Assembly (NCBI GenBank): GCA_008632985.1
Contig: QPGO01000015.1
Span: forward strand, 1-62,817
Origin: Psammoneis japonica
Lineage: Eukaryota
Direction of reading: 5' to 3'
DNA length: 62,817 nt
Below, in pieces: positions 20,639-61,359 of this stretch. Both the position numbers and the translations under genes were made by a program. Numbering within the stretch: the stretch's first letter is position 1; every line of letters begins with the position of its first letter. Under the pieces are notes generated by a model. The model was not told where the DNA came from. It worked only from the letters and a program-made list of their open reading frames with translations, and did not search any database.

Positions 20639-21778
20639 ATGACGACGAACGCGCCCTCTGAGTCGCAGCCAGAGAATGAGCCCGTTCCAATGTTCGCAAC
20701 CTCCAATCCGGTAAGTTCTCCGAGATCAGATGAGAAGATTTTGTACATGAGCCTGCTTGTTTTTGTGCTTTTTGCGGTATGAGTTGTGACGCTCCAATCG
20801 AACGGAATCAGTAATAGCAGGTTCAGCTTTATGTACAAATCTACGGCCCATCCAGTACAGAAGATCCGCCTCAAGAAGCCACATTTTTTTCTGATTTGCT
20901 CCTTTCATTCCTCTCGTTTTTTTTAGACGGTCGATGAGCCTAACGTTGATCTTGATGATATCTTTCGTGATTGCTACTTTGGAGATTTTCCCGTGCCACC
21001 GTTTGTTCAGAGTGGAGCTGTCGAAACCGACGCTGGCCAGAAAAGAAGTGCGGAGGAAGCCGACTTGGACGAGGGTGGCGATTCCAAAAAGTCTAGTAAG
21101 CCTCTTACAGAACAGCAAAAAATCGAACGTAGGGAAAGGAATCGTGAACATGCGAAACGTAGTCGATTGAGGAAGAAGTTTCTTCTTGAGAGTCTGCAGG
21201 AGCAAATTCATGGGCTACAGGGCGAGATCGAAACACTCAAGAATATCATTCAAACTGAACTCCCAGACAAAGCTGATGCTCTTCTGTCGTCCGTTACCGC
21301 CGATAAAAGTAAATACAAACCTCTTCCGATGCCCAGTGGATTTGGTCCTGTCAAGACTCTGATGGAACCTGACTTTCGTCTCATGTCAGCTCTTTCCGGT
21401 TCGCAGCAGAATTTTGCCATCTCGGATCCTAGTCTCCCCGACAATCCCATTGTGTACGTTTCACAGGGTTTCCTCGACTTGACTGGGTACAAGCTTGACC
21501 AGGTGCTCGGGAGAAATTGCCGTTTTCTCCAGGGACCAGGTACTGATCAAAGTGCCGTCGATGTTATCCGTCGTGGTATTCGTGAAGGGATCGATACTTC
21601 TGTCTGTCTCTTGAACTACAGAGCTGATGGAACCCCTTTCTGGAACCAATTTTTTGTTGCGGCCCTTCGTGATGCTGAGAACAATGTCGTGAACTTTGTC
21701 GGGGTACAATGCGAGGTTTCAAAGGCAGTGGTAGACAAGCAGATCTCGGAGGGAAAGACGCCGGCTCTTTCGTCGTGA
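20639..21778 (+). CDS. AUREO1c: Aureochrome blue-light receptor (bZIP-LOV), 1c type; intron 20711-20926
   Basis: bZIP ERRERNREHAKRSRLRKKFLLESLQ and LOV domain with GRNCRFLQG. DFRLMSALSGSQQNFAISDP resembles diatom AUREO1c as I recall it; the subtype is less certain than the family. Confidence 0.93.
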
Positions 21779-22829
21779 GGGACGGGGAGCTTGATGGGAG
21801 TAGGGAAAGATGCATGTCGCCAAAACAACTCTAGTAATGATAACGTGAAGGTTTAAACAAAGTTAAATGACATCGAATCGTTTCCTAAATCGGAGTGGCA
21901 AAAGCGGTGATAGATTGACACACTCGACTACATGCTAAATGAAAGTCGGCCAAATTATTGGACGATTTTCAGACGGATGTAATGGCTCTTAGGCTGCTTT
22001 GAACGGCTCAAAAACTATGAACGACTCTCCCTTCACCAGAGCAGTGTGATGCTGATGTAGACAGGACGGATATGAACACACCTTTCTTCTGTTGTTGAGG
22101 AATTTCTGCCAATGCCTTCATAATGAGTTTCACCAGCCAACTCTCTTGCTGCGACACATGCTGGCATTCCATGCGATGGTGAAGCAATTGCAATGGCGGT
22201 CAAGAAACAAACCCACATAATGACACCACCACTGCCAGTGACAAAGGGAGGGAGAATTGAGGAGCTGTTTCAGTGATTGTGCAAACGACGTGATGTTGCC
22301 CCCTCTTTCTTTCTTTTTCAACAGACCCCCATCTGCAATTGTCTCCTTGTGGCCACAGGTGTCAAGGTTGGCTTGGCAAATGACATGAGTTAAGCATGCA
22401 ACTTTATCGGTGTAAAAGAGAAAAACATGCCATGTGTGACTGTCATGCCCATCATGGTTGATCTTGACTTTGTCGCGGTTTGCAGCAGCGATGATCCACC
22501 TTCAGCAGCTGAGGATGCTGGCCTCAACTGAAGGTTTGAAATGTCATGGAGAATCCTGCTTGTTCAGTCTCTCTCTGCTCTCATGATGTTTAAAATGCTT
22601 GGTGTTGATGCAGCTGTGATCAATTGCCACAATTTGTTCATTTGCACTTGCCCACAGAAAAGACAATGCCCAAAAGACTGCAGCCAAAGAACAATTGGGG
22701 GGACTCAGAGACAGCAGCACCAGAGAGGCAGAGGCAGGGCCACACAAAAAGTGATGCAGCTTGATCTAAGGCACATCACAGGGGGGGGGCAGGGAGAAAA
22801 TAGAGCTGCAAAAAGGAAGCCACAAATCC

Positions 22830-23060
22830 ACGTGGTTTGTTTGTCCCACAGCCATGTCAGAAGTGGTTCAAGCATTGTCTTGAGAAAGATGTGCAAGCTG
22901 ACAGACAGAGATGAAGGCCACATGGAGCATGCGGCAACATGCATGGCATTCAGTGAACTTAATTTTTCATGCCAAAACCAAACAGTCATTTCAGTGGATG
23001 TTGTTGATGATGCTGAGATGACACCACAGATGCCATGTGCTCCAGCTCGAGAGTTGTCAA
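22830..23060 (+). repeat. Diverged direct repeat A, copy 1 (copy 2 at ~28690-28885)
   Basis: Collinear shared blocks: gtcagaagtggt, caagctga..., catggagcatg/catggaacatg, tggatgttgttgatgatgctga and gctcgagagtt/gctcaagagtt. Confidence 0.7.
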
Positions 23061-26000
23061 CAGTGTTTAGAATCAACAGCCATCATCAAGAATGTTCTTG
23101 CTTGCACACAGTTGGAAAGTGTGCTTTTGCAAACCAGCCATTGAGTGGTGGTGCCAGTCAACAACTTGGTGAGACACCACAATCCACCTGACATGACTGA
23201 ACCATAGAGTGTGCATGAGATCTTTGCAACAAAAACAAGACACACTGTGTTTTGCCAGTGCTCGCACTGCAACAGGTCACCCCATTTTATTTTTAAAGCC
23301 ATGTGGCAGTTGGCAGAGCATGGGGCTCCAGCCAGATTTGCACTGAGCAGTTGTTGTGCAAATGGGCTCTCATCCTTGTCTGGCTGGCACTGGCAAACAC
23401 AGGAAGCTTGTTCAAAATGCTGCGTGCATGTTGATGATGACACCCTGGCTTGGAGCAGCCTCAGAAGCCTGGGCTCAATTGAGAACATCAAAGCCTTGAT
23501 GCCCCCTCCCTCCAGTGCCAGCCAGAGCCGAGTCTGTGGCAAAAATGAGGAGGCTCCACCAAATTGTGCCACTTTTTCCCTTTCTTGCCAGCAGACTCCA
23601 ACACAACAAGGGCAGTTGTTCAGCACTTCTTGGCCCTGGTTGTGACTGCACCAGCTCCCAACAACTGTGGACAAAAGCTCATGTGCAGATGATGAGATGT
23701 GTGCCCAATTGCTGCCAACAAAGCCATGTTTCCATGTGCAGTGTCTCATGAAAAGATTCTTGCATTCTCCCAAAGCACTGTCATGGCAAATGGAGCTCTC
23801 CTGCAGTGCTTCAATGATCATGTCCAATGCAATGACTGCAGCTCCAACTGGCCCACAGCCTCCAACACCACAGTGCAAGGCATTGCCTTTAGCATCACCA
23901 AGTTAGAAGATCAGATCACAACAAGCACCTGGAAAACACAAGCGACAGCTTCCCCAAGACAGCCCCCACACACAACAGATGTGCTGCCATTCATGTCATC
24001 CATCAATGGAGATGTTGTTCCTTCCAAACTCTGTGAAATGGGTGCCAAAAAATTCAAATGACAGGCTGCAACAGCAGCAGTCCAGGTGCAAAGCTGGATG
24101 CAGCACACCCTCAAGAACACCAGTTTGGTTGCTTGCTTGTGCTCAACCAAGGAGTGGTGGCAGCTGTGCAGGCTGGTGATTTCCACAGGATCACAGTGAT
24201 CTGCCAAACAACTTCAGCACCTTTTTCTTGGCATGCCCTCTGGTTGCACCAGGAAACAATGAGAAGGAGACAGTGGCAGCAGCAGTGATTTGTCTCCACA
24301 TGCAAGTCACAGCTAGAAGGAAAAGGTCTTTAAGAAAAGGACATCAAGAAGATGTCAGAGCAAAAACTCAAGTGGCCAATGATGGCAGATGCTCTCTCCT
24401 TTCAGATTTGTGACTTTGCTTGAATTCTTGTTGTTGTCCTGGGTGAGAAATCTCCTTCTGTTTTTGACATCAAGAAATGTTGTCTGATTTGCTGCAGCCA
24501 GCAGGAAAAGGACAGAGCTTTTTCTGGTGAACTCCCTTTGGATGCAGTCCAAAAGATGTCCAACTCTGGCTCACCAAATTGTGCCAACACTGAGGTGCAA
24601 TGCAACACCATTTGTGACTTCCTGGTTGGCTTCACAGATCTCCAGTGCAAAACAGCACTCAACCACTTTGCTTGAACCACCCTCACCTTTGTCACTGCTC
24701 AGGTGATGGGAGATGAACAAGGAACAAAATGCAGGGGTAAAGACAGATGCCAAGGGCCAAGGCAAAATGGTGCAAAATGACTCTCTGTGGTGCAATCCTG
24801 GAAAAGCTCAAGAAAGGTGAGGACTGTGGCAAGACCTTTCATTCCCACATCAAGTCCCTTCTCATCATGATGGATGGTGCTCATCTTTGTGGCAAGAAGA
24901 GTCATGTCAAGGGCCACTGTGTGACCTCTTGCAACTTCAATTGCAGCGAGCCAAAGGGAGCCACATTGGTTGTTGCTTGGTGGCAGCAACCTGGTCCACC
25001 ACCCAAACTGCCAAACACTCCAACCCTGCCTTTGATGATGTTTGTGTGTGAGCCCCAAACTCCCAAGCAAATTGCAAAAAATGGCAGGTCAATGACAAAT
25101 GGATCAAATCAAAGGCCGTCACACCCAGAACACTGTTGACTTAGTCTGAGAACAAGTTGATGAGCAATGACAAGCTGAGCAGCTGACTGACTCTTTCCTT
25201 GCCAGATGCAACTCAAGGATCCACACAATGCAAAAGTCTGCTGCAAAACCCAGTGACAGCTTTGTGTGTGTTCCATGGCTGCAGTGTTTCTGTGAGACAA
25301 GCAGCAATGCCCATGGCAATTGATGCACTGGCATGCCCAAGTTTGAGCTCTGAGTTTCGCCACAGTTGATGAGGAGCATGGAGCTCATGAAGCAAGGGAT
25401 GCTGATGGGAGTGCAGTGGGACAGACAGATGCATGGCAGGGCTTGGTTTTTCCCTGTGCTTGTTGCTGGCAAGTTGATGCTGTGCTTCCACCACAAGCAC
25501 CATGGCATCATTCATGAATGTTTGTCATTGCCAAAGCACATTGCACCACAGCGCTGATTGTGGCATCATGTTCCAGCCACAGAAAAGTTCCATGCTTTGT
25601 TTCACACAATTTTGTGCACAAGCATGTTGTTGCTTGTTGGGGACAGGCTGACAAGTGGTGGCATGTGTTTGTGAAGCTTTGAGTGTGCAAAACTCTCATG
25701 ACCAGCTGGAGGACAAATGCATGAGTGGTTGGGGGCAATCTGAGGCAGGTCAAAACAACACAGTGAAGTGTGGGAATTGTCAAGCCGTTTCAAATTTGAC
25801 CTCAGATGATTGACACACCACATCCTCAACATGACTTGCAAAGTTAATGAGCACATGTTCCAGCCATGTGCAAATCAAGCACCATGCACCAAAAACAACA
25901 TTTTTGAGACTTGTGATCAAGCTTTTGCCCCAGCCCACCAAAAGCACAGATTTGTCCAAACATCAATGTTTTGCAACACTGGCAAGACTCATGTCAGTGT

Positions 26001-28689
26001 TGCAATTTCATTGTTTTTGTGGCATCAATGTTTTTCATTGTGACAAATGAGTTGCAATGCCATGGATGAATTTGACCAAAATCTTGCAGATTTGCACTCC
26101 ATTGCTGTTTGAGTGTTTTCAAGACAAAACAATCATTTGCAATGTCATCTGGCAGGTCACGCTCCACCTGCAAAGGCTCCATTGCAGCCAATGTGCTGAT
26201 GTCATGCCAACCAGCATTTGCTCTGCAGAAGAAATTGTGGCATGCATCCCACGAACAAGACTTGGGCACCAATGAAAAAGGAAATGCTCAACTGTCCACA
26301 CTCTGTGGGACACTCACAAAAGCCAACACACATGTGAGCATTTTTTATCAACACACTTCACACACAAGGATTGTGTCATTTGCACTCAAAATGGAGCATT
26401 CAGGGCTGAAACATGCTGAGTGCAGCAATTAAGAAGGCTTGGCTGCCAGAGATGTTTTGCCTGTTGCCAGGAATGAAGAACAAGATGATGATGGCAAGGC
26501 ACCAGCACTCTGATTGCACAATTCATTCTGACTGTCAATCAGCAACACTTGTCAGAGTGGGCACGACAAGCAAAGGCCAACACAGACAGGACCCTCCAGC
26601 AACAAAGAGCAGGAGGGAGCAATGGCGGTGAAAGTTGGGGCAACAAAAACAACTCATTCTCAGGTGAAATCGTGGTGTGTGCAAACAAAGAGGCTTTGCA
26701 ATTTTAAGAATTGAAAAGTCATGGGAAGGGTGGCAATGTGAAATCTTTGAACTTTGCCTTGCAGGGCAGAATCACAAAGGAAAAAATCACTTCATGACTG
26801 TCCCTCATGGTGCTCAAATCTGCACAAGATTCTGTGCATTTGGTGGTGTTTTGGCACATCAATTCCCACACACCAACATTGGATGCCAAGATGGGAGAGC
26901 AAGGCAGCACACAAAACTGGCAGAGAAAGCAAAGAAAAACAACAGAAAGTGCTGCAAACATGGGATGCCACTTTGCAATGAGACAACACAAAACAAAACA
27001 AAAAAAGTTGCAGGCAGCAAGATGAGTGCAAACCAGCAGCAGGACAACAGGGGAAATGAGGGCCCACCAACTTTGATTGGTTCTGTGCATGCAAGGGAAG
27101 AAAGGAAGTGAGACGAAGCATGGCTTGCATGTGGGTTGATTTGTGCTCAAAGGAAATTTCTTGCCACACTCTTGTGCACTGCTGTCAAGGCAATGGCACA
27201 TCCACCTCTGGCTGGCTCCACAAGTCCAACTTCAACAAGGACAAGAGCCCCATGCAACTGACAGTCATGCATGAATTCACCTCCATCATGATTCCAGCCT
27301 GAAGCCAGTTGTTCAGTCAATGGCTCCCGGACAAGAAAAACTTTGTTGGCAACTGTTTGTTGAGAGACAGAAATCTTTGTGATGATGCTCTTGCTGCTTT
27401 GCTCTGTCATGTTGTTCTCAAGCAGATTCCTTGAAATTTTCTCATCTCCCACTGCCCAATGAGGCCATTTCATGGTTGACCTCCTTGACACCAAAGTTGC
27501 TTGTCAACAAGCCAACACCAAAGAAACCAACAAGAAGTGCAGTGCAGCTGGGCTCTCAGAGACAACCTTCTCATTGACAAACTCACTGTCACCCAATGCT
27601 GTCACAAGAATGGCAGCACTTGGCTCAATGTTGCAAAGTGTTGGCAGCAGGGATGACTGTCAGAGCTGCTGGTGTGGACAATGTGGTGCCAACCTTTGAG
27701 TCTTGTGACTGGAAGGGCTCAAGACTTGACAAGGACAGATGCTCATCTCACCTTCTGCTGTGACAATGCCAAGGACACAAGAGCCAAGATGGACAACAGA
27801 AGCAACAGAAAGCAATCACTGCCACACTCCTTGGAGCCCTTGCCAGAATTGCAAGGATGCAGCCATGAACTAAATGACCATCAGCACATGTTTTTTGTGA
27901 TGTGATCCTGCAAATGCTCCAGAACCAAAGGCAGCCATTGCACCAAACTTCTTTTGCTTTGAAACCTCCATTTCTTCCTCTCCAACAGGGAGTTGTCCCA
28001 CTCAGACCCAGATCCAGCCTTGGTGGACACTGCATCAATCAACCCCAAAGTGCCAGAAGAATGAAGAACAGTGCAGCACAGCCGCTGCATTCAGAATGGG
28101 CAGCAACATGCTCCAAACAGTCAAAGCCTGGTCAGCAGCAGCAGCAGCAGTGCACAGAGTCTGAGCTTGTGCCCTCCCTTGGCAACACTCAACTCACTGG
28201 TCTGCACCATCCAGACCAATGGCAAGCTTTGGAGCCTGCAATCACATCTGCCACATTGAAATGTGAGCTGCAGCAAAGGCAATCAGAGAGGAGTGGTTGG
28301 GATGCAATCACACAAGATCAGTGCACGCTCCATTCGCTCAGGCATGGCAATGGCGCTGTGTCTCAACAATGCACCAGTCCACTTGTCAGCACTCATCAGA
28401 ACCCACAGATGCAAGTGGCTCTCATGAAGCCCAACCCATCCCATGCCAAGCACAGTTGAGGGCACAACCACCATCATGGCTCATGCTGTTCATGCAAGTG
28501 GCATGATGGGCTGCAATGGAAATTTGTGATGGCACACCAACTGCAGGACTGTCGGGTTGCTGGGGAGTGTTGCTGCTCATGTCCAGGAATTAAAATTTTC
28601 TTGGGCCAAGCAACCGGCATGTCTTGATGCACTCCATTTTTGCTTGGAGCTGGATCTCACAACACCCGTTGCAAAGACTTGTTACATGG

Positions 28690-28885
28690 GTCATTGTTTG
28701 TTGGTCCTGTGAGTCAGAAGTGGTGTGAGCAGCCACAGATGTGCAAAAGGCACACAAGCTGATGGGCAGATGGAGGCTGCATGGAACATGATGTGCTGAA
28801 GTCCATTTCTTGTCAACAACAATGGATGTTGTTGATGATGCTGAAACAACACACATTGTGTGTTCTGGCTCAAGAGTTTTCATGA
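28690..28885 (+). repeat. Diverged direct repeat A, copy 2
   Basis: Collinear similarity to 22830-23060. Confidence 0.7.
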
Positions 28886-30769
28886 GCAGCCTTTAAAATT
28901 ACCCAAACCCACCCTGCATCAGCTGCAGGACTGTGGGGTCACTGCAGAATGTTCAAATCTGGGGTTAAAAAGGACTGGGAGTTCTCAACCTGACATGAGA
29001 GGATCTTGTTTCAATGGGCAGCTCATTGCTGTGGTGACACTGCAGCAAAGAGGAGCAACCAAAGGAGCATGAAGATGTGACTAAGTTGACAATGAAGTGC
29101 TGCACCAAGGAAATAAAAGACACTTGCAAATTTTGCAATGGTGTTGCTGATGTGATGCCCAACAGTCTGGTGGCAACAAGTCTGTCCAGCTTTGATCTGC
29201 ACCCTGACAGCATCAACACCTGCAGCCACAGATGTGATGATGACAGTGAGTTGTGTCAGATGGGGGTGAAATTCATGAGGGCAAGCCCTCCAAAACTCAT
29301 GGCCATGGCAAACAATGGACACAATTGAGACAACAAGTTGCCAGAGACAGAGGATGAGGACATTGGGGCACCAGCAAGATTGCTTTCCCACCACTGACAA
29401 AGGAGTTTGGAACACGTGGCATTTGACTTTGACAATGGGCAGACCTCTCTCCTCTGCATGTCAGGACAGCATTTGTGAGCCCTCAGAAACCTCCTGTGTG
29501 GCAAACAAAAAGTGCAAGGGAGGCCTTGACAAGATTCTCAAACAAGCAAAGCATGGCTCACCAAATGGCATTCTCTGAAACCTCTGCTGCATGATCAATG
29601 GCCACAATGGAGTTCAGCACAAAAAACCAGAAGAAGAGATTTGTGTCATGTGCCACCTCTGCCCAAGCTGGGGATGGACCTTGCCACAAAATTGCCAAGT
29701 GGATCACCTGGAACAAAGCTCAAGAAAGTTCAAAGAGAGTGCATGGCTCAACAGGCAAAAGCTTGCCAGCTGCCACACCAAGGTTGCACAGAGTGTGGCT
29801 GACCAGGAGAAGGCTGCTGCAGGCCATTGAACTGTGTCTTGCTCTGTTTGTGACCAAAATCTCACTGCCTCATTTGGGGAAAGCTCCCCTGTGGTTGGTG
29901 CAGCACAACCAGCTTTTTGCAATCAGCTGTTGTTGTTTTTCATGCCACAGCAGCATGCATCAAAGCATTGCTCAAGCACGCAAATGTTGCAGTGGATGGC
30001 CACATGTGATCTTGAAATTGCACACAAAACTTCTTCATGTTGGCACACTGTCTCACAAGAAATGTGGGTGCCTGGCAAAGGCCAAGAAGCAACGGCAGTG
30101 AAAACAACAAAAGACAACAAGGTGGGAGCAACCCCCAAGTCAAAAGCCAAGCAGCTGCCTTTTGAGGCTAATTTTGAGCCTTGCGCTTGAGACTCTCACC
30201 TTCCAAGTGACATCCCACACCAACAGCTCAGTTGAACAAGGGTGTGTTGGTCCCCAGTGACCCTTTGCCAGGAGATCCAGTGCACAGTGCAACAATCATG
30301 GCATCTGTGTGGGGCATTGCAAGCACCAGCTGTTGGCAATGCACTCCACTGCTGAGCTGACAAATGACCTCCCTTGATGCATCAATCACAGGCCCCAGCT
30401 AGCAGCACAGAGCTTGTGCAGCTCTTGTTTGTGTCAGCAGCTGGTGCAACTCTTCCTTGACACTGGCATCATGGTCATCATGTGCTGGAAGCAAGTTTGA
30501 AATTTTTGATTCTTCTCAGCACCTGCAAATGATGTGTTGAGAGATGTTGGTTTGCAATTTGTGCCACCTTTCAATGGCTTGCTGCTCTGACAGCACTTTT
30601 CACAAAACAACCACTGCCTCTTTGCCCAAGCATGCAGCAGGGCCAAGAGAGCACTTGTTGTGGCTCAGCACAGACTCAGCACTCCTTGAAAGAATGGGTT
30701 TTTAAGCAGGCAGAAAACAACAGAGCCGGGGTCATGAGAGGGACAACTGGCAGTGCAACACAAAAACAA

Positions 30770-31165
30770 TGAGTGACTGGGTGGGCAGCAAGTGTGGCAG
30801 TGCAGGCTCAGAGCCACAGATCTGCACAACCAAGATCAGCAACACAGCAAATCCCAGGGAAAATGGTGCTGAAGAAGACATCAACTTTGGCATGAGAATT
30901 GGGAACAATTGTGAGAATGGGAACAACATTGGTGATTGCAGTGTTCTGGATTTCAAGGCAGAAGAATGAGATCAGCACAACTCTCAAGGTGGGAAAGGCA
31001 GAAGGATGAATGGTGGGATTGGCTCACTCTAAAATGAGCGATGGCCCCATCACCAATCAAGGCAAATGGCAGCCATTTTCAGGAGATTTTTTTTCATGTC
31101 TGTTGGACCCAAAGATTGGAAGATGTTGTTTTGCATGTTTTTTGGAAACACCATGTGGGAGAGGA
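30770..31165 (+). repeat. Diverged direct repeat B, copy 1 (copy 2 at ~32075-32455)
   Basis: Shared blocks gagtgactg, aaccaagatcagc/aaccaaggtcagc, gctgaaga..catcaa..atgagaa.tgggaacaa, tcaccaatca, caggagat and gacccaaa...gaaacacca. Confidence 0.8.
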
Positions 31166-32074
31166 AACGGGGGTTGGGTTTGGGGATGCAACCACAGCCA
31201 GACAGAAAGACAAGGATGGGCAAGCCTTTGGACATTGATCAACAACACATTCATGCACACACCAGTGCCATCACAATGGGGCTTGTTGACTTCAATGTTC
31301 ATCTGAAACATTTCATTCATGACACCTCACTCTGCGGACTGGGGAAAGAACATGTGCACTGTGATGCTGCACCTTGCTGGACCTTGCTCTTTGAATGTGG
31401 TGTCAACAGGATCAAAGATGGAGGCACAATTGACAGGTTGAGAGCAGCGCATTTGCCAGAGCCTTGCTGTTGCAATGGGTGCCCAGTCTGCATTCTAACA
31501 GCCTGAAAACAAACCTCAACACTGACAAGATCCCACAAGCTTTCTTGGCTGCACAACATGATCATGAAGAAGGAGATCTTCTGAGTGCTGGTCTGGCACA
31601 CTCAACTGATGGCAGACCATTGTTCATGAATGTCCAACCAAACACAGCCCTGTCATGAAGCACAGATCCATCACTTCCAGCTGCAGCTTGCACAGAACAA
31701 TCTGATGTGCCAGCTCTGACAACAAAACATGAAATGCTGTGCAAGAGAATGGCATTGATTCCTGCTCTGGCAGCGCACCCAACCACTCCTTGATCATGTC
31801 TGGAAGAGGCAGGGGAACCTTCATGATGAGCATGGAGCAAGGCAGAGCAAAACTCCAGCACCCATTGTCAAGGGCAGAAAAATTTGTTACTTTGCTGAAC
31901 ACATTTCACAACAGCAACAACAACAACCATCATTTTTGCCCAAAACAAAAAGCAGATTTTGAGAGCACTTGTTGTGGTGGCTGGTCAGTCGCAAAAGAAC
32001 AGGTTTTCAAGCATGACAGAAAATGGCTCAGGCATGGGGTGAAAGGAACAATCAACAGGGCAGCATGTGAAATG

Positions 32075-32455
32075 TGAGTGACTGAAGAGGCAGCATGTGG
32101 TGCTGTGGATCCAGCAGCAGATCTTCTTTCAACCAAGGTCAGCGGCACAAACCTGAGGGAAAAGAGGGGCCGACACGCTGAAGATGGCATCAATTTCAGA
32201 ATGAGAACTGGGAACAACAATGATGAGAGCAGGAACAGTGTCAACAACCACAGTGCTCTGGATGTCACCAGAGGCAGAAGAGTGGGGGCGTCTGTGTGAG
32301 GTGCGCGGGGGGCGGGTTTTGGCGGCTGATTCCTGTCACCAATCACGATGCATGACCACAGCCGTTGGCAGGAGATCTGCCATGTTGTAAATCCAGACCC
32401 AAACATTAGAAGCTGTTGTTTCTACATGTTTGTTTTAGAAACACCAAGGGAGAGC
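32075..32455 (+). repeat. Diverged direct repeat B, copy 2, straddling the right edge of the TpA-depleted block
   Basis: Collinear with 30770-31165. Its distal part still carries TA and CG. Confidence 0.8.
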
Positions 32456-32724: not shown

Positions 32725-34395
32725 ATGCTAAAGAAGTTTTGGCGTTGTGCGCTCCTACTGGGACTTGTGGCAATAGTTGCCCCTACCACTGAGGCATCGG
32801 TGGAATCGATTCAAAGAACTGCTTTCTCGCCGAAACCCTATGTCACGGATATTAAGAACGGCGGTTCCTTGAACCCGGCTGTACATGCGAGCCTAAGAAA
32901 GGTCACGGAATCGTACCGTGGAGGTGGTGATTCGTCTGGCGAAAGCGACGCGCTGGTGGGTGCCGTTGCATTTACTGCCATCGACAAGATTTCTAGGGAG
33001 CTGTTCACGAAGTACAGCATCCCTTTCCCTTCTCAGTTGGGGGCATGCATGATCATGTTTACAACGATGGTGCTAGGCGAAGAGCTTGTACCTGGATTTG
33101 GAGATAAGATATTTTCCTTCTTGAATCCAGGTGCCCTTTTGTTGGCCAAGTGGCTTCCGGTGTTTTTCGTTCCTGGACTGGCGATGCTTCCACTGGCGCC
33201 ATCTATTGGATCTCCTATTGAGGTGCGTTGTATTGAAGCATTTATTATGTATCTTCTGGGACGTGATTCTGCTTAATGACGCCACTAACTTCTTCTCGCT
33301 TTTGTCGTACGCCCTTTGTATCCTACCGGTGACTAGGTTGTCAAGGTGCTTTCGGTGATTATCCTTGGCTTTATTTTCTCCTTAAGTTCCACGGCCTTTG
33401 CTGTGCTGGGCTTGAGGGCATCCATGGGGGCTGTAACGTCACCTGAAGCACCACCCCAGGTGCCGAAGCGCAGACAGGCGAAAGGAAATGATGCTCCCGC
33501 CCCCCCTCCCAAGGCCTTCTCAGACTCCACGATGGATTTCCTCCTCAAGGGAACAGTGTTGTCTGGAGCTATTAGCATAGCGGCATCACGCAATGATATG
33601 GACTGGGCAACGCCTCTCCGCACTATCAACATGCTTTTTGTTACTGTAACTTCGTACGTGTGGGGAGCTCGTTTACCGTCTGGGTTCAACAAGGTCGTGC
33701 ACCCACTCGTTACCAGCACTGGTTTGACCCTGGCTGCCATGGCAATCACTGGGTTTTGCACTGGCTCTACGTTCATGGATGTTTTACGGACGTACAAGGT
33801 GGGTTCTATGAGTCCACTTGAGACTGGTGCCGGTGACGTTTTGTTGTACCTCCTCGGCCCGGCTGTCGTGTCGTTTGCCATGTCAATGTACAGTCGGAAA
33901 ACTCTCTTGAAGGAAAATCTCTTTGTCGTTATTGTCGCCATGTTTGTTTCAAGTGTTGGGGGACTTTTTGGAACTGGCGCTTTTGTGCGCTTAATCAACC
34001 TAGGTGGTGCTAGTGACACATTTTTGCGTCGCTCGGTTTTGTCACGCAACGTTACAACTGCGCTGGCCATTGCTCTAACATCAATGATTGAAGGTAACCT
34101 CGCTATCGCCGCCAGCGTAGTGGTTTTGACCGGGATTATCGGTGCTACCTATGGGAGGACGCTACTAACAGCAATGGGGATTGAAGACCCTGTATCACGC
34201 GGCCTCGGACTTGGAGGTGCAGGTCAGGGGCTAGGGGTGGCTAGTATGATGAGTGAAAAGGACGCATTTCCTTTTGCGGCTGTATCTATGGTACTCACGG
34301 CGGTCTGCGCTACAACCCTGGTTTCAATTCCAGCTGTGAAGGATGCCCTTTTGAGTCTCGTGGGGCCTGTTACAGTAGCTCCAGTGACTGCGTAA
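32725..34395 (+). CDS. LrgB-domain membrane protein, PLGG1-like (plastid glycolate/glycerate translocator) paralog 1; intron 33223-33336
   Basis: IPFPSQLG, LLAKWLPVFFVPGL, KVVHPLV, GAGDVLLYLLGPAVVSFA, SRNVTTALA, SRGLGLG and EKDAFPFAAV motifs. Signal peptide. Confidence 0.9.
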
Positions 34396-36389: not shown

Positions 36390-37975
36390 GAGAGTTGGAA
36401 AAAAAAAAAGAGCTCGTCGCAAACAGCAAAATAGCACTAACACCATACCAGCGCTGTCGAGCCCTCTCCGACCCACCACACCCCCCATACCCCTACTATA
36501 CCGCCATATAACATCGCCCGTGCAGCGCAACGAGCGATGCAACCTCCCGCCGCGACGCTGTGGATCACGCCATTGTTGTCCTTGTTGGCCGCTCTTCACT
36601 CACGTAGAAACCCTACCACAACCTACGTGTCGACACACATCACACCCATCATCACACCCATCACACGTAGAAATCCTACCACGTTCTACGCTCCCGACAC
36701 CACCATCACGATGACCGAAAACGCCCACCATGACGCAACCGCGTCCTCCCTCGACGCATTTACCCTCCTCGACGACAACTCCCATACGGACTCCGACTCT
36801 GACCCCGAAACTAATGAGTCAATCTTCGACACTGCGGACACCACCGACGCAGCATCCGCTCCCTGCTCCCATCCGCTCCCTGCTCCCATCCGATCACGAC
36901 ATGCCTTGGGCCGACATCTCCATTGCCACACCCCTCAACCCTGCAGACGACACCGAGCATGAATCCATCAATTGCCGCCGAGTCTCCTCCATCAAAATCA
37001 AGGACATCGCCCCGCCAGACGCACCCCACCCCAACCTGGATTTTGACGAATCTCAGCACAGAAGCCGTCACGTCGTCGCTCAGCATCAGCTTCTCACAGC
37101 GCTGCGCAAGCAGGCCACTGAACACCACCACACAGCCTTCCGGGACCTCCGCACCCGCATTGACACCCCACAAGCCCAAATCCAAGCACAACACCTGACC
37201 GCACATCTCGTTGGCAACCTCGCACCCGGCACCCTGCCCCCACGAGCGACGCCTGGCACCTGCACGCACGCTCTTCCCTTTGACGCCTCTCACCAACTGT
37301 GCCTCTCCTCCTTTCCCCTTTTTCACAGGCCCGACAATTGGTGGGCACTGGTCCACACTGATTCGCCTCCGCCCCCTGCCCAACGGCGCGGTGCGATCAT
37401 GCCCTTTGCCATTTTGTTGCACTTGCCCCCACCACTGCCCGGCGCACGCACAAGCAACGCGCCGGGTGGCAATTTTTGTCGGAACCCTCACTGTCCCTTG
37501 GACCTGGCCAGACATGTGACCGACAACATGGCGGGGATCAGCAGTGCCAGGGGACACGGACATCGCGCCTTCGGCGCGATGCGCCGTGCTGGAGCTTCGT
37601 GCCAGAAAACCTGGGGGGCCTCGCTGTGCAATGCAGCCCCAGGTTCCCTGCCATTCTTGAGATGACAGGGCGGGGTGACATTCAAGGAGCCCGTCCTGGG
37701 CACAACGTCCTGGGGGCCTTTTCCAGACCTGAGCGGGCATCCTTGACCATGCGCATCAAGGGTGTCGACTGCCTGCAGGGGATCAGGTTTGGCTGCATCG
37801 CAGCCCCCTGGAGGTGACACATGCTTCAGTGGTCATTGGGGCCCCTGGCATGAACCAGGGAGAGCACAAAAGATGCTGCTGCCTCAACCCACTTGAAGTG
37901 GACACTGCACACACACACACACACACACCCAGCACTGGAGAGAGCAGGTCTGCCGATGAAGATTCCCCCAAGCTC
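36390..37975 (+). mobile_element. Degenerate C-rich retroelement-like fragment, TpA-depleted from ~36850 on; ends with a (CA)n tract
   Basis: Strong C/A strand skew, broken Pro/His/Thr-rich frames and an imperfect ~63-nt tandem duplication at 36600-36690. Family not identified. Confidence 0.5.
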
Positions 37976-38386
37976 TACTGCCACCCTCTATAGCTAGTAG
38001 AGAGTAGCTCCACTACTACTTAGCAGCTGCTGTAGCTCAAGAATGTATCTCTGTGAGTTCTAGACACCCTGCCTCCGCGATGTACGCCTGCTCCGGCAGG
38101 CTTCCTGAAATGCCCAGTTGAAGCTTGTACGCCCATAATTTATAAGACTTTGATGACGTCACGACTGGTGTTGGATTACCTATATGTCTATACTTGTATA
38201 GTATTATATATGTTTTGCCGCCATTTTTGTGTCGCGATCTCACTTTTCACATTCATCTTCAACCTGCTTCTTATTTTCGAACCTCATCGCGGCTCGAGGA
38301 TCTTCGCCAACCGTTACGTTGCTGCTGTCCTGTCTGACTTCAGCTTATTCCATTGCTTTCAATTGCTCGGGGCTTCCCAAACGAAA

Positions 38387-40042
38387 ATGTGGAAAGTTTC
38401 AGTTTGGCGGATCTTTGCCGCCACTCTTCTTCTGGTCGCATCCGATGCGTACTCCCCTCCGCACGTCTTTACAAGTCGGGGACACCAACACATTGGACAT
38501 GGAGCATTTCGTAGCTCGTCAATTCGCCTTTCACATAGAAGCCGAGTTTCTGGTAAGAAACTATTGGTTGGCATGTCAAAGCGCCGAGTCACAAAACAAC
38601 TGAGAATGTCGTCCAACGAAGAACCTACTGTCAAGGCGGTTGGAGCTACGTCGATGTTGGTTCTCTTTGACATTGGCTTTCGCAGGCTTTTCAAATTACT
38701 CTCGATATCATTTCCATCATCGTTGGCAGGCTGCGGTTTCTTGTTTGCGAGCCTTTTGACATTTCCAAAGGGTCAGCAGATTTACAATTTTCTTAGTCCA
38801 GGAGCGGCACTTTTGGCAAAGTGGTTACCTGTATTCTTTGTACCCAGCCTCATTACTCTACCATTGGCTGCAGATCTCGGAACGGCCGCCGAGGTAGGAT
38901 CTTAGCGCTTAAATGCTGAGAGATAAACGAACCATTCTGATGTATAACCTTCTTTGCTCCTTGCCAATTGCTCCTTGCTTTCATAGGTTGCAAAGATTGG
39001 AGTTGTTGTCGGCGGTGGTTTCTACTTTTCAGCGCTGACCACTGCATGGTCTGTGTTGGGAATCAGAAAGCTCGTATCCAGAAACAAGAGTGAAAGGATG
39101 GGTAATGATGCAACAAACACAGCTGATGAAGCTGATGAAATACCTGTGGTTGTCAATGGTGAATTTACTCCTGAAGAGAAAGCGCCATTTTCGGATGAAA
39201 CAGCTTCCTTGCTGAGAATCGTTTTGAGTCTCACTGCCTCTGCTGCGTTAGTGACCAGTACTTCACCGGATCATGCGCACCTTTTGAATCCAACGTGCTC
39301 GGCTTTCATGTTAACCGCGACTCTGCACAACTTTGTCTTTGGTGCCCGGTTGCCAAAAAAATTCACAAAGTTGGTCCACCCGCTCGTTACATGCACCGCT
39401 CTGACATGGGTTGCAGCAAAGCTTCTCGCTTTTGCAACCGAAACTTCCTTTAAATCTGTACTCAAGAAGTACCGCACGGGATCATTGGGTCTCTACACAG
39501 CAGGGGCGGGAGACATTCTCCTATTCTTGTTGGGTCCTGCGGTTGTGTCCTTGGCATGTCAAATGTACGACAGGAGGAAACTAATGAAGGAAAACATGGC
39601 AGAGGTGGCAACAGCGGTAGGAGTTTCATCCGTTGGCGGCTTGTTTGGTACTGCTGGGCTCGTACGGCTTTTGAATATTGGCAATCCTGTTGTCCGTCTT
39701 TCACTGTTATCAAGAAATATTACGTCTCCGCTGGCAATGGCCATTGCGTCGATACTCGGTGCAGATGTTTCGCTTGCCGTTACCATGGTGGTCCTGTCCG
39801 GTTTGATCGGTGCTAACTTCGGTGCATCAATTTTAGACGCATTTGGGATAAAAGACGCTGTCGCACGTGGTCTCGGAATTGGGGCGGCGGCGCATGGATT
39901 GGGAACAGCCGCCTTTGCGAACGAGAAAGATGCTTTTCCATTCGCGGCTATTGCAATGGCTTTGACTGCTTCTGCCACCACCGTTCTAGTCTCCATCTCT
40001 CCCATCAGGAAGGCGGTTATACAGCTAGCTTTGGGGTCTTAG
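38387..40042 (+). CDS. LrgB-domain PLGG1-like paralog 2; intron 38894-38986
   Basis: ISFPSSLAG, LLAKWLPVFFVPSL, KLVHPLV, GAGDILLFLLGPAVVSLA, SRNITSPLA and ARGLGIGAAAHGLGTA motifs. Signal peptide (SDA-Y). Confidence 0.9.
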
Positions 40043-41149: not shown

Positions 41150-42929
41150 GTGCTTTAGTCGCGGACCCTGATGAAAGGAGGAGACGAGGAGAAAGTTGGA
41201 GGTGTCTTCCTTGCTCGAACTTGTAGAGTCTTTAAATAGAAGATTAAGGGAGCCTATGTAGAGCGGAAGGGAACAGCAGAGGGAGGCACGGAGGTAGCTG
41301 TAGAGACGGTAGAGTAGAAGGGTCGAAGGACGCAAGACGAAGGGCGTTTTGAAGAAGGTATGGGTGAGGAGGGAGCAGGGAGAGAGGAAGTGAATCGGAG
41401 GATGTGCGTAGAAAGGTGAAGAACGACGTTGTAGCCAAGAGTTTGGGTGGCCCACTGGGATGGGGTGGCCGTACGGTAGGTGCTCCCAAAGCGATCGGCG
41501 GACAGGCGACGCCATGCGAAGTCAGCGGAGGGAAGGATTGCAGACGGAGACGACAAAGCGTAGAGGAAGGCGGAGTAGGAGGCATCGGAGTGACGAAAGT
41601 CAGAGGAAGAGGACCAGGGTGGCTTGGGCTGAGAGCAGACGGAGGAGGATGTAGAACCAAAGAGCAAGCGGTGAGCAAAGCAGCCGAGACCACCAAGGTG
41701 ATCTGCAGTGAAGGGGAGCAGGAAGATGCCATCGTTGTCAAGCGAAGAAACAACAAGGGATCAATCGGCAGAGGAAGTGGAGGGGCCAAGAAACTTCAAT
41801 CTTGCGCTCGAGTGGTGTGCCTCAGTTAAAATAGGAGAAGAGGGGGCAGGCAGACCTGGAGGAGGGCGAGAGGAAGCTTGAGGGACGGCAACGTCTGCTG
41901 CAATGTGGTGATGGCGGGAGGGAGCGGAAAGGGAGGCGGGAGGGGGAATTAAAATGCCGACATCGGCGGGACGGAGGAGCGGGCAGGTGGGGAGCAGGTT
42001 GGTGGGTTCGAGATGAACGTCATCAGGGGATCGACAGAACTCTGCAAGAGGACCCAAAGTTTGGGCTGGGATGAAAACAGCATCACGGAGACCATTGGAG
42101 AGCTTGGACTTGTGAGCACGGCGGCAAGAAAAGGCATGATCACCACAGGCATCCAGGATGGCATGGCCACAGGGACAGGGAGTGTTGACAAGGGACGGAG
42201 GAAGGATGGGGAGATGAAGCTTGCGAAGGGCGGCAATGACGTGGGCGTCCGAAGAAAGGCGGGAGCTTGGGAAGCGACGGGAGAAGGAATGAAGAGGGAG
42301 GCTTGCAAGCGGAGATGGCAATGAAGGGAGTGAAGATTGCACGTCGTAAGATGAGTTGGCAAGGATGGAGGTTGCTGCTTGCTGCTGATGTTCATGGCAG
42401 AGGCGACGAGCCAGGCCAGGAAGAGTGGCCGATTTAACCAGGGCAGCCAAGGAAGAAGAGGAAAGGGCAGAGGCGGAAGCCAGAACAGGAGCATGACGGC
42501 GGAAGAGCATGTGGAGTCATGGGGAAGAGCGAGGGTTGGACCAGGAAGACAGGGAGAGCTGAAAGCAGCGCAGAAGGGAAACAGAAGTGCCAGATGGCAG
42601 GCTGACACCGTGCGAAGCAAAGTGGAGCGAGCGGAGAAGCGACACCAAGAAGGAAGGAACGGCAGCAGCTGTTGGATCCCGGAGACCAAACCCGCCTGAG
42701 GAGGCAGGAAGGAAGGCAATGGCAATGGAATGGCCAGGAAAAGGAGCGGCGAAGGAAGTGACGCAGTGAAGAAAGCGGTGAGCAACGGTGAGGAGGAAAT
42801 CTTGAAATGGAGAGGTCCAGAGAAAGGGGTCGGGAGGATTGTCGGGGTCGAAGTTGCAGCAGAAGTCAGCCCCAAGGAGGTGAGCAGAGGATGGAAGAGA
42901 TTGATTGTTGGTTGGGGAAACAGCGCGAG
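41150..42929 (-). mobile_element. 5'-truncated non-LTR retrotransposon (CRE-like, restriction-like endonuclease), flanked by 5-bp direct repeat CGTTT
   Basis: GGFGLRDP RT-thumb-like motif, zinc knuckle CPCG...DACGDHAFSC, RLE motif RPADV...AADVAV and FLLPFTADHLGGLG; several frameshifts. CGTTT occurs at 41145-41149 and 42930-42934. Confidence 0.8.
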
Positions 42930-43465
42930 CGTTTCTTGAACTTAGAAACTTGGACGGAATGAACTTGCTGCCGACATGACGTCAGCGGTGCTGACGACAC
43001 GACGCACGATAACAGCATGGAGTTACGACTAGCACAATGTGAACTGTAAAAAACGTCCCGAACACCCGTATCGCATTTTTTGTACATCTATATTTAACGA
43101 TAACGTCTTTTAGCAAATAATTAGGGCATTTTTACAGATGTAACCCATACAATTTTTACTCAAAAATCGATACTTGTAACACAATTAGAAGATTTTTTAA
43201 TGTTTCCTATTCAAATTGAGAGTCAAATTTTGATATTACTTTTTCAACTCCGACTGCTTCATAATCAATAAACAAGTTCGAATATTTTATTAAAAGACGT
43301 GGCCGGCGTTTAGGTCCATTTTGGCGGCTCCGACATTTGAGTTTACTTAACACCAGACATTTCTATAGGACTTAAGTTCGTAGAGCAATAAATACGTAGA
43401 CTGGTACAAATTCTACATCAGGAGTCATGTGCAGTCATTTTACATACCAATCATACAGACATTTA

Positions 43466-49155: not shown

Positions 49156-49605
49156 GGTCTTCGTTGTATTGTTGCATAAATCGATCAGAAACGCGACGTA
49201 CCATGCAACAAATCGGTTGTTTCAATACGGAAAAAACTCCCGTGCTTCCTCCAAAAAAACACGGAAGGTACGGTTGCTGAAGAGGGGGTAACGGTCAGTA
49301 CAATGTGTAGAATTCAACGGGGAAATACTACGGAATACAACATGGGTTGTATTCCCGGGATAATGTACGAGTAGCCGGCTCCGGGTTCAGCGGTCATGCG
49401 GAGTGATGCGCTCCTCGTGACTGGTTCGTGACTTACGAAAACTGCATGGCGGTGCTGTGGTCGCGCTTTCTGAAGAAATCGCGACCACAACCGAGCGTTG
49501 ATCTTGGATGGTCGCAAGCTACAAGCTTCCATAATTTTGATCTCGTGACCAAGTATTTTACAATTATTCACCTCTCTAGGGCCCTAGAACGATATTCTGT
49601 GCAAA

Positions 49606-55358: not shown

Positions 55359-55464
55359 GTTGTGTGTCATCGGTGTTGTTGCCGCAGCATCCGTCTGTCA
55401 TGGCTCTAATGGCATGTTTGCCTTTTCTCGTTCCTTGAGTGCAGGTTTTGCATCACGTGGCACC

Positions 55465-61322: not shown

Positions 61323-61359
61323 TCTCCCTCTCAACCGAAAAGAGAAGGAGAACTGTCAG

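Follow-up and report, generated by a model that had tools for sequence, protein, structure and literature searches.

Among described systems, RIP of Neurospora and other fungi is one of the nearest to the signature reported here. Both consist of dense, transition-only, dinucleotide-specific hypermutation that falls on both strands, here apparently also of mobile or repeated DNA, ends at sharp borders and kills the element. However, RIP changes C:G to T:A mainly at CpA and thereby creates TpA, whereas the A:T to G:C changes found here destroy TpA and create CpA and TpG. RIP itself was rejected as an explanation, as its indices are inverted in the affected block A described below (TpA/ApT 0.063 and (CpA+TpG)/(ApC+GpT) 2.12, vs 0.64 and 1.23 in the background). 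We know of no RIP outside fungi, where it depends on a RID/DNMT4-type enzyme and a premeiotic stage. According to a survey of 60 diatom species, 31 possess DNMT4 enzymes, which cluster with fungal RID and have no assigned function (PMC9998398); the same paper describes diatom transposons as CpG-methylated.

If adenine is the base under attack, the signature shares with TadA and the early TadA-derived base editors an adenine deamination read as G, with T or U at position -1 and C at +1. The natural substrate of TadA is RNA, namely the U-A-C-G anticodon loop, and the early editors prefer 'YAC', whereas in the DNA analysed here T at +1 does no worse than C. Eukaryotic ADAT2/3 substrates carry G, C or A at +1, never U. 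To our knowledge, no natural DNA adenine deaminase has been described. Clustered, context-specific transitions also mark element copies in animal genomes, where they are credited to host deaminases (PMC4866542). APOBEC3 and ADAR leave single-stranded marks, G>A or A>G, made during retrotransposition, whereas here a DNA transposon was hit on both strands, in one arm and apparently in place. Finally, A>G changes at W-A, at TA and less so at AA, recall the WA hotspots of polymerase eta in immunoglobulin somatic hypermutation (PMC8749460 and PMC7884765), but the bias of TA over AA is much stronger here, transversions are almost absent and whole domains of 5-10 kb are saturated.

In the window, i.e., the whole stretch of 62,817 nucleotides that was analysed, one region has lost both TA and CG and contains an older internal duplication:

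22050 to 32290, no strand assigned: block A, some 10.2 kb nearly devoid of TA and CG (dinucleotide observed/expected ratios, 300-nt map)
30650 to 31000, plus strand: older internal duplicate, copy 1 (partner 31955-32310)
31955 to 32310, plus strand: older internal duplicate, copy 2 (partner 30650-31000)

Within 22380-31900 (9521 nt), 35 TA (observed/expected ratio, o/e, 0.05) and 40 CG (o/e 0.07) are left, next to 1199 CA (o/e 1.84) and 1053 TG (o/e 1.97); the comparison DNA (window 1-22000) has a TA o/e of 0.58 and a CG o/e of 0.98. The losses are confined to TA and CG. About 355 TA and 488 CG are missing, and a surplus of 895 CA+TG balances this deficit, indicating that the lost TA and CG became CA and TG. 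The real extent of the depletion reaches beyond these limits, from about 22050 to 32290. According to the 300-nt map and the TA/CG positions, its right border is sharp (32289-32388) and its left border is graded across 22020-22500. TA is normal in the adjoining intergenic DNA, with an aureochrome-like gene on one side and an LrgB-like gene on the other. No Pfam family was found in the 22 ORFs or the six-frame read-through of block A, and its coding capacity is not recognisable; nor could the block be identified from these as a transposon or repeat, which counts against a transposon-directed reading. The two internal duplicates are apart by 81 transitions and 35 transversions, including 15 CA-versus-TG doublets, which we read as single ancestral TA or CG sites resolved separately in each copy.

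The TA sites that survive in block A are strongly biased in context. The sequence-only reading had described them as mostly YTAR, about 24 of 34 by eye, and the count is 24 of 35 (TTAA 12, CTAA 6, TTAG 4, CTAG 2), the remainder being YTAY (6) and RTAR (5), with no RTAY. The chance share had been set at about a quarter, which is too high, as YTAR makes up 281 of the 1639 TA sites (17%) in four unaffected stretches of the window (40,003 nt; binomial p = 2.4e-11). The enrichment thus persists after correction for background tetramer frequencies, the check named in that reading, and also under a second null in which new TA are drawn at random from the CA and TG of block A itself (22% YTAR, p = 5e-9). 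Relative to background density, survival amounts to 0.36 for YTAR, 0.06 for YTAY, 0.05 for RTAR and 0 for RTAY, of which 122 would be expected; TTAA taken by itself is seen 12 times where 14.3 are expected.

A second affected region allows for a direct comparison between a mutated and an untouched copy of the same sequence:

54849 to 59910, no strand assigned: DNA transposon; its long terminal repeats are inverted and measure 378 nt (95%) and 129 nt (96%)
54849 to 55358, plus strand: left terminal repeat arm, mutated; 15 of 19 right-arm TA are TG or CA here
59347 to 59910, minus strand: right terminal repeat arm, untouched, used as proxy ancestor; 0 of 4 left-arm TA are changed here
57715 to 58596, minus strand: remnant of a DDE transposase (Pfam DDE_3, E = 6.6e-12)

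The left border of the depletion is the first base of this transposon. From there TA depletion with near-normal CG extends to about 59400 (TA o/e 0.13 and CG o/e 0.78 over 54849-59346), and the TA density of the right arm is normal from 59402 on. The summed word depth of the transposon is 142-430 vs about 55 in the single-copy flanks, which implies several genomic copies. Both the DDE element and the Copia element described below are multi-copy by summed contig depth. The arms differ at 27 clean mismatches, one of them a transversion, and in 15 of the 27 a right-arm TA faces a left-arm TG (7) or CA (8). TA is taken as the ancestral state because of the depletion itself and because at 55044 and 55347 other genomic copies agree with the right arm. 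So polarised, the left arm carries all 15 TA changes and all four CpG changes, with TA changed at 15/19 sites (79%), CpG at 4/46 (9%), other A/T at 5/250 and other G/C at 2/155. The terminal-repeat counts given previously are exact, including the changed A lying in TAY on its own strand in 13 of the 15 TA changes and the four non-TA A>G changes that precede a pyrimidine (AAT, AAT, GAT, GAC). Among the survivors in the core of the DDE element, YTAR again stands out (15 of 30 vs the 17% background, p = 4e-5).

These rates separate two processes. What is probably methyl-CpG deamination decay is recognised in the CpG>TpG/CpA changes of the same blocks and in the low CG o/e of block A, but it covers the CG half alone: TA loss is faster, at 79% vs 9% of the arm sites, and occurs also where CG is not lost. 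Two deaminase signatures were rejected. APOBEC-type C>T or G>A in TC or CC is contradicted by the two changes among 155 non-CpG G/C positions of the arm, the losses lying at TA and CG only. ADAR-type one-strand A>G is contradicted by the balance of TG and CA (7 vs 8 in the arm, 1053 vs 1199 in block A) and by the DNA transposon being affected. As judged from the letters, the changes are DNA-level, on both strands and almost all transitions, and they affect a DNA transposon alongside Copia. The finding that mutation is limited to one of the two arms of a single element argues for mutation in place. The same untouched right arm speaks against a purely homology-triggered process, since it is a repeat too and should have been mutated.

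The base that follows the changed A influences the rate. In a larger set of 41 pooled pairwise events the 3'-pyrimidine bias is kept, with an odds ratio of 2.9 for Y vs R (Fisher p = 0.005). Hits per available half-site are 14/27 before T, 10/37 before C, 13/62 before A and 4/38 before G, and the order is thus T > C > A >= G. At sites with TAY on one strand and TAR on its complement, mutation fell on the TAY strand in 24 of 31 cases when all sets are taken together (p = 0.0017), made up of 14/18 pairwise events, 6/7 conserved-Tyr codons (in columns where Tyr reaches 80% or more) and 4/6 displayed read differences. Surviving TA half-sites mirror this preference: A or G follows in 79% of those in block A and in 82, 71, 59 and 64% of those in the metagenome Copia loci L006, L016, L050 and L051 (see below), vs 43-45% in two backgrounds. 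TAY is nevertheless a rate preference and not a rule, as 7 of the 31 informative events break the pattern, TAG and TAA sites were mutated too (TAA nine times among the late-stage changes from L016 to L006) and the protected contexts vary by block, being TTAA in block A and TCTA (22/68 half-sites vs 7% in the background) and CGTA in the DDE element. The TAY target motif proposed earlier holds in the first sense only. At saturation, resistance is left to TAA/TTAA alone. G at +2 seems protective, as suggested by the CGTA survivors, and a composition test of YTAY going to YTGY vs YCAY gave +345 vs +174 in block A and was flat in the DDE element (+45 vs +43). The proposed resemblance to a TadA/ADAT-type preference survives in part. 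A thin likeness to TadA remains in T(-1) and C(+1), whereas ADAT does not fit because its substrates never have U at +1 and T is the best base here. In agreement with the earlier statement that the window encodes no candidate enzyme, none of its 35 ORFs of at least 200 aa matches a deaminase family.

Depletion of TA extends to a retroelement gene and to two smaller blocks:

61360 to 62817, minus strand: Copia-type polymerase (RVT_2, E = 4.8e-29), partly TA-depleted, frame open
36750 to 37800, no strand assigned: block B, G+C-rich, TA-only depletion (TA o/e 0.08, CG o/e 0.81, 3 TA left)
41700 to 43000, no strand assigned: block C, TA-only depletion, purine-rich plus strand (TA o/e 0.12, CG o/e 0.75)

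At the 10 columns in which 60% or more of 62 normal Copia loci carry Tyr, the window copy of Copia keeps a single Tyr and shows six His and three Cys instead, and the Tyr of the Y-x-D-D motif is among those replaced. Tyr makes up 1.0% of its residues vs 3.5% in the normal loci, and 0.2-1.0% across the affected copies. From these replacements, TA loss in Copia reads as damage, not adaptation. Long open frames, such as the 382-aa frame retained in L006, are kept because, by sequence logic, A:T>G:C changes cannot make stop codons. Block C retains YTAR at 4 of its 6 surviving TA sites, and the depth is about 1100 from 42818 on; as a contrary observation, the high-depth segments 46153-46819, 48821-49487 and 60827-61493 are without depletion. 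Judging from a sample of 80 Copia loci out of public metagenomes, which may include the window's own species, the same signature recurs in unrelated Copia contigs. TA/CG o/e is 0.07/0.01 in L006, 0.25/0.11 in L016 and 0.32/0.30 in L050, and L051 and L031 bear the signature as well (0.43/0.82, Tyr 0.2%); the signature-bearing loci come under three contig-name series.

We consider it very probable that the TA hypermutation is real, targeted and in place. The best explanation of the whole, to which we give a probability of roughly 55%, is transposon-directed hypermutation of TpA to TpG or CpA combined with a slower decay of CpG. A DNA-level mutator would strike certain transposon-derived stretches of a pennate-diatom-like nuclear genome in place and turn TpA into TpG or CpA, with either strand open to these A:T to G:C transitions. 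At TpA it would work at roughly ten times the rate of CpG decay and far above the rate at all other positions. The changed A would be hit fastest before T or C (equivalent to R before T on the other strand) and more slowly before G or A, leaving TTAA almost immune, and the action would end at sharp borders coinciding with element ends. In the same domains CpG would decay to TpG or CpA more slowly, probably via cytosine methylation, so that young targets would have lost TA only and old ones both. Such a process would presumably be enzymatic and genome-defence-like, a mirror image of RIP in fungi. In chemical terms, the simplest route may be a deamination that turns adenine into hypoxanthine (read as G) within 5'-T-A-Y-3'; this fits the almost pure transitions, the mutation of both strands and the strong preference of TA over AA; we put adenine deamination forward as a tentative candidate. 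We found no report in the literature of such TpA-erasing hypermutation. The dead mobile-element copies in which nearly all TA became TG or CA may thus point to an undescribed DNA-level A-to-G mutator of mobile DNA.

The A in T-A-Y is the T in R-T-A on the complement, and the target base could therefore be adenine or thymine. A TET/JBP-type or other enzyme might modify T in 5'-R-T-A-3' of silenced elements, e.g., to 5-hydroxymethyl- or 5-formyl-uracil, with pairing to G and T>C as the result. As the two motifs are exact complements, all context results fit this route equally well, and pure transitions and two-strand symmetry are compatible with it. In its favour, the 5-hydroxymethyluracil of dinoflagellates is concentrated at TpA and TpC, and 5-formyluracil promotes pairing with G. 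We nonetheless hold it to be unlikely, as a saturating loss would demand a highly mutagenic derivative and we know of no hmU or base J DNA reported to lose T at such a scale.

Error-prone repair appears somewhat less probable still. In methylated elements, lesions such as the T:G mismatch from methyl-CpG deamination, processed again and again, would recruit a polymerase-eta-like enzyme that inserts G for A at WA, which would explain why the 4 CpG and 15 TA changes share one domain, all in the left arm, and why non-TA A>G changes occur in A-A-T, so that the motif reads W-A. However, polymerase eta produces a mixed spectrum of A>G/T/C, whereas one of the 27 arm differences is a transversion, and TA (15/19) is hit far more than AA or other A/T (5/250). 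Polymerase eta WA mutagenesis as such, with AA and TA both hot and a mixed spectrum, was rejected on the same figures. Moreover, TA loss is about nine times CpG loss per site and TA-only blocks occur.

We attach a small probability to slow passive decay, in which TpA would exceed all other steps in mutability where silent chromatin replicates late and is poorly repaired, and no dedicated enzyme would be needed. The depletion does track apparent age, from TA-only to TA+CG blocks, and the CpG decay of these domains is itself ordinary and passive. Yet 15 changes in one arm of an element stand against 0 in its other arm, TA is changed at 79% of sites vs 1-2% at other positions, TA is normal in neighbouring intergenic DNA, and no spontaneous process known to us renders TpA about nine times more mutable than CpG.

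Selection on active elements to shun UpA and CpG in RNA or DNA, and so to evade host nucleases or methylation, is very improbable. Both dinucleotides are suppressed in many RNA viruses, and the polymerase frames of the window Copia copy and L006 are open; such frames are expected anyway from changes that make no stop codons. Tyr can be encoded only with TA, and yet conserved Tyr including that of Y-x-D-D was replaced, block A lacks coding capacity and the non-coding arms are affected. We give an equally slight chance to RNA editing, in which an ADAR/ADAT-like A-to-I activity would act on element transcripts and reverse transcription would fix the result. Animal genomes do contain retroelement copies with A-to-G clusters (compare PMC4866542 for APOBEC), but the equal hits on both strands contradict this route, a DNA transposon is affected and the arms of one inserted element differ.

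Least probable of all is a sequencing or assembly artefact such as miscalls of modified bases: the sole matching run, X1, may be the assembly's own source, but its independent set of contigs, the longest of 315 kb, carries 0.91 of the block's sampled words, which implies accurate reads, unrelated metagenome assemblies also bear the signature, and copies resolve the same site differently. CA-versus-TG doublets set the window apart from further copies in the genome at 43748/9, 44331/2, 57109/10, 58788/9 and 59118/9, and also occur between L006 and L016. Over 1234 contigs, the places that differ from the window comprise 908 with transitions and 320 with transversions.

Block A, which extends over about 22050-32290 on a 300-nt map, has lost the dinucleotides TA and CG in favor of CA and TG. 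In 1-kb steps from 23001 to 32000 the observed/expected ratio (o/e) ranges from 0.01 to 0.09 for TA, from 0.02 to 0.11 for CG and from 1.76 to 2.05 for CA+TG. Counted over 22380-31900, there are 35 TA (o/e 0.05), 40 CG (0.07), 1199 CA (1.84) and 1053 TG (1.97), compared to an o/e of 0.58 for TA and 0.98 for CG in the stretch 1-22000. Relative to background density, about 355 TA and about 488 CG are missing and about 895 CA+TG are extra; since this excess matches the losses, the missing TA and CG have been turned into CA and TG. The RIP indices are inverted (TpA/ApT 0.063; (CpA+TpG)/(ApC+GpT) 2.12). The right edge of the block is sharp, with CG back at 32289 and TA at 32388, and the left edge is graded across about 400 nt. 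A Pfam search of its 22 ORFs of at least 90 aa gave no credible match, a six-frame read-through with X at stops gave no family, and comparing the block to the remainder of the window by blastn and tblastx returned nothing beyond an internal duplicate. Purine/pyrimidine-coded blastn of block A against 80 Copia loci and the window reached a top score of 114 versus 110 for the reversed control, and thus revealed no homology. Elsewhere in the window, TA is lost and CG is kept in the following stretches:

36750-37800, block B
41700-43000, block C
54849 to about 59400, in a DNA transposon that ends at 59910 and has long terminal inverted repeats (the DDE element)
Window's end, part of a Copia polymerase (Copia end, 61360-62817, minus strand)

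The two arms of the DDE element (left, 54849-55358; right, 59347-59910) differ at 27 well-aligned positions, 15 of which are TA in the right arm and TG (7) or CA (8) in the left. The changed A is followed by a pyrimidine in 13 of these 15, and the four A>G changes outside TA lie in AAT, AAT, GAT and GAC, which reproduces the figures reported by the sequence-only reading for all three counts. Broken down by base class, transitions affect 15 of 38 TA, 4 of 92 CG, 5 of 250 other A/T and 2 of 155 other G/C positions, accompanied by a single transversion. Out of 19 TA kept by the right arm 15 are changed in the left, whereas none of the left arm's four TA is changed in the right; at 55044 and 55347 other genomic copies read the right-arm letter, supporting the left arm as the derived one. 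Depletion begins at the first base of the element, and the mutated domain covers the left repeat as well as the interior before stopping at the right repeat's inner edge; the right repeat itself (59347-59910) has no TA or CpG change at all. TA is lost first and CG later, since 79% of the TA sites in the left arm have changed versus 9% of its CG sites and TA-only blocks exist. TA and CpG decay share a domain, because all four CpG changes fall in the mutated arm.

The sequence-only reading had also proposed that surviving TA are enriched in YTAR, and this enrichment persists after background correction. In block A, YTAR accounts for 24 of 35 survivors (TTAA 12, CTAA 6, TTAG 4, CTAG 2), next to YTAY 6, RTAR 5 and RTAY 0, compared to 281 of 1639 TA (17%) in 40 kb of unaffected window DNA (p 2.4e-11); under the alternative null of new TA born from block A's own CA/TG, 22% YTAR is expected (p 5e-9). 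The share is 15/30 in the core of the DDE element (p 3.7e-5), 4/6 in block C, 1/3 in block B and, not significantly, 5/18 in the Copia end. Expressed as fractions of background, the trinucleotides TAC, TAT, TAG and TAA stand at 0.02, 0.03, 0.09 and 0.27 in block A, and at 0.14, 0.06, 0.39 and 0.17 in the DDE element. A multiplicative model, fitted by hand to the tetramer table of block A, gives the survival of a half-site (one strand's view of TA with its 3′ base) as about 0.92 before A, 0.32 before G and about 0.1 before C or T.

The protected context varies by block, being TTAA in block A and both TCTA and CGTA in the DDE element. Among the 68 strand-symmetrised surviving half-sites of the latter (54849-59346), TC precedes TA in 22 (p 6e-10) and CG in 10 (p 0.02), each against a background of 7%. 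TA may be protected by an adjacent, possibly methylated, CpG or by a TC step; alternatively, the element may have been TCTAG-rich from birth. A product-class composition test (YTGY versus YCAY) was flat in the DDE element (+45 versus +43) and was counted as a point against the proposed process. Many of the element's surviving TA are contained in TCTAG or TCTAGA.

The signature is very unlikely to be a sequencing or assembly artefact and is not unique to the window. A public run, X1, holds 0.91 of block A's sampled words in contigs of up to 315 kb, a length for which accurate reads are needed, and may be the assembly's own source. Independent support is given by the best 80 of 411 confirmed Copia loci from public metagenomes, which include these depleted copies:

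L006, TA o/e 0.07, CG o/e 0.01
L016, TA o/e 0.25, CG o/e 0.11
L050, TA o/e 0.32, CG o/e 0.30
L051, TA o/e 0.48, CG o/e 0.16
L031:1-4165, TA o/e 0.43, CG o/e 0.82, polymerase Tyr 0.2%, from a third metagenome series

A or G after surviving TA is enriched in all five, and L031, like the DDE element of the window, is at the stage where TA alone is lost; the remaining loci of the set have a TA o/e of 0.35-0.85 without this pattern. L006:1-1487 and L016:490-1976, from different assemblies, are one Copia copy at 94% identity and at different stages of depletion. With TA at 8 versus 27, CG at 1 versus 8, 66 transitions, 19 transversions and many CA-vs-TG doublets (CA in one copy, TG in the other), the pair captures the process as a natural time series. 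A Copia family of ten copies, all from one metagenome series (L052, L054, L057, L058, L061, L069, L070, L073, L076, L077), was judged not to be a clear target of the process and left out of all event counts: its TA o/e is 0.33-0.56 and its CG o/e 0.33-0.63, A>G rates in TA context are just 1-3 times those in other contexts, and shared ancestry dominates the site patterns, which sometimes run opposite to the TAY rule.

The target 5′-TAY-3′ claimed from the sequence stands as a 3′-pyrimidine bias in a larger event set and falls as a strict rule: pooled over all sets, 24 of 31 informative events follow it (p 0.0017), so that it is better described as a preference. Pairwise comparison of the DDE arms, of L006 with L016 and of L050 with L051 yields 41 TA>TG/CA events. 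Changes per available half-site amount to 14/27 before T, 10/37 before C, 13/62 before A and 4/38 before G (pyrimidine versus purine, odds ratio 2.9, p 0.005), and where the other strand offers TAR the TAY strand is changed in 14 of 18 events. Late in the process, from L016 to L006, TAA changed nine times because few other targets were left. Further events were polarised by conserved tyrosines, set by 62 Copia loci with normal TA; eight columns with at least 80% Tyr were used and those below (q295, q321) excluded, L006 and L016 were counted once where their state is shared, and outcomes were read from the alignment table. Cys (TGY) or His (CAY) occupies these columns in the depleted copies: the outcome is Cys in six of seven cases with a preceding pyrimidine, and a purine precedes six of seven His outcomes. 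The His of DCHVDADF was rejected as a Tyr replacement, the same His being present in loci that otherwise keep Tyr. Finally, 1234 contigs at no less than 80% identity to the window show 908 transition and 320 transversion places. Event classes were taken from 40 differences listed of 1313, which comprise 10 single TA-vs-TG/CA differences (seven with a 3′ pyrimidine; four of six informative ones follow the rule), 10 single CG-vs-TG/CA differences, five CA-vs-TG doublets, three other transitions, all in A-A-T, six transversions and one further transition at 45094, beside a transversion.

We argue that the activity works in place, on chromosomal DNA. An RNA intermediate as the edited molecule is excluded by the strand symmetry of the products (TG 7 versus CA 8 in the left arm, TG 1053 versus CA 1199 in block A), by the involvement of a cut-and-paste DNA transposon as well as Copia, by the difference between two arms of one inserted element (15 versus 0 TA changes) and by the border at the element's first base. 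The same ancestral site has been resolved differently in different copies: the old internal duplicates of block A, which are 81 transitions and 35 transversions apart, contain 15 CA-vs-TG doublets, and such doublets likewise occur between L006 and L016 and between the window and paralogous contigs. The process is destructive to the elements. Indeed, of 10 columns in which Tyr is conserved, the window's Copia polymerase keeps it in one, its Y-x-D-D motif is without the Tyr, and the Tyr share of residues is 0.2-1.0% in depleted copies versus 3.5% in normal ones. As A:T>G:C changes create no stop codon, frames stay open (485 aa in the window's Copia, 382 aa in L006) and a spurious 789-aa ORF appears in the DDE element.

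The responsible activity would act on either strand of a DNA duplex, recognizing T-A together with the directly adjoining bases, would yield transitions only and would be restricted to particular element copies. Enzymatic deamination of adenine to hypoxanthine would be the simplest fit. We tentatively propose, at a probability of roughly 30%, that an adenine deaminase acting on DNA occurs naturally in diatoms and is directed by chromatin or repeats; it would rewrite 5′-T-A-Y-3′ to T-G-Y on both strands, would inactivate mobile elements in this way and might also act on 5-methylcytosine at CpG. A modification of thymine in R-T-A with subsequent mispairing with G would be formally indistinguishable, since T in R-T-A and A in T-A-Y cannot be told apart from sequence alone. 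A polymerase-eta-like error process at W-A would accommodate the A-A-T secondary sites and the domain common to TA changes and CpG decay, but is disfavored by the extreme bias of TA over AA and the near absence of transversions. Passive decay of TpA cannot produce a change of 79% of TA versus 1-2% of other positions within one arm while the other arm is intact, and selection instead of mutation is excluded by the loss of conserved tyrosines and the effect on non-coding targets. Homology as in RIP, small RNAs and chromatin are candidates for the guide; repetition alone is insufficient because the right arm is untouched and several high-depth segments are undepleted.

The process resembles fungal RIP in outcome and logic, but the chemistry that defines RIP is not found here, and the CG half of the signature is an ordinary case of methyl-CpG decay. 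For this CG half only, diatom DNMT4 enzymes offer a lead: PMC9998398 groups them with fungal RID and gives their function as not known. The ordinary RIP indices appear, for Rhizoctonia, in PMC7884421. Regarding the suggested TadA/ADAT-type preference, the U-A-C context of TadA does overlap with the one found here, whereas ADAT substrates do not match. To our knowledge, transposon-directed point hypermutation is otherwise seen solely as C-to-T (fungal RIP, APOBEC), and we know of no natural enzyme that deaminates adenine in DNA. The full-text literature, mostly main texts outside subscription journals, yielded no account of TpA-directed or A-to-G transposon hypermutation in diatoms or other eukaryotes.

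If the adenine deaminase reading is true, the process would amount to an 'inverse RIP' and to the first genome-defense mutator based on adenine, and its enzyme would be the first natural counterpart of those that had to be laboratory-evolved for adenine base editing. Diatoms are a major phytoplankton group, and a TpA-erasing process in mobile DNA would be a new arm of eukaryotic genome defense; it would account for islands of odd composition and for long 'ORFs' free of stops, both of which confuse the annotation of genes and repeats in diatoms. A simple index (low TpA/ApT, high CpA+TpG, YTAR survivors) would find and date silenced elements. Should a deaminase or a thymine-modifying enzyme be responsible, it would be of direct base-editing interest, and candidates could be matched to a fingerprint in which T-A-Y changes fastest, TTAA is immune and a neighboring CpG possibly protects.

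The window itself is gene-dense eukaryotic nuclear DNA of 48% G+C, with long, intron-poor ORFs for MatE, DHH/DHHA2, PPR, Rab-type GTPase, FYVE, LrgB-like and aureochrome-type bZIP+PAS proteins; named relatives of the last are from the pennate diatoms Fragilaria, Fistulifera and Cylindrotheca (76-89% identity). The aureochrome-type ORF (bZIP and PAS/LOV, 20993-21778) directly adjoins block A. Two LrgB-like ORFs and a weak LrgA-like ORF stand in tandem (33346-34395, 38150-38905, 39053-40042) with block B between them. Block B has 61.5% G+C and carries two almost fully overlapping ORFs (311 and 309 aa) on opposite strands, neither with a Pfam family; both are probably frames that the loss of TA has freed of stops. 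Around block C (41600-43000) the plus strand is strongly purine-rich (G+C skew +0.37 to +0.39, A+T skew +0.30 to +0.39), the long overlapping minus-strand ORFs match no Pfam family, and a depth of about 1100 from 42818 onward marks part of it as highly repeated.

Among the public runs, no RNA data set matching block A is listed, which was not counted as evidence; neither was the RNA-like run X2, whose contigs leave 54824-57491 without cover. Over 59910-60447, X2 contigs have a 77-nt GT..AG skip (60145-60223) and, immediately before the final base of the transposon (59910), 255 unlike letters; this pattern resembles that of a spliced transcript or of an allele lacking the insertion. An ORF of 655 aa with a GCR1_C domain (47188-49155) is flanked by 46153-46819 and 48821-49487, with depths of about 2100 and about 1800 versus 55 for single-copy DNA; this is a repeated element in which TA is not depleted. 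Just upstream of the Copia remnant, two small arrays 404 nt apart (60344-60419 and 60781-60845) are built from an 11-nt unit that has GGAACG or GGTACG at its end.
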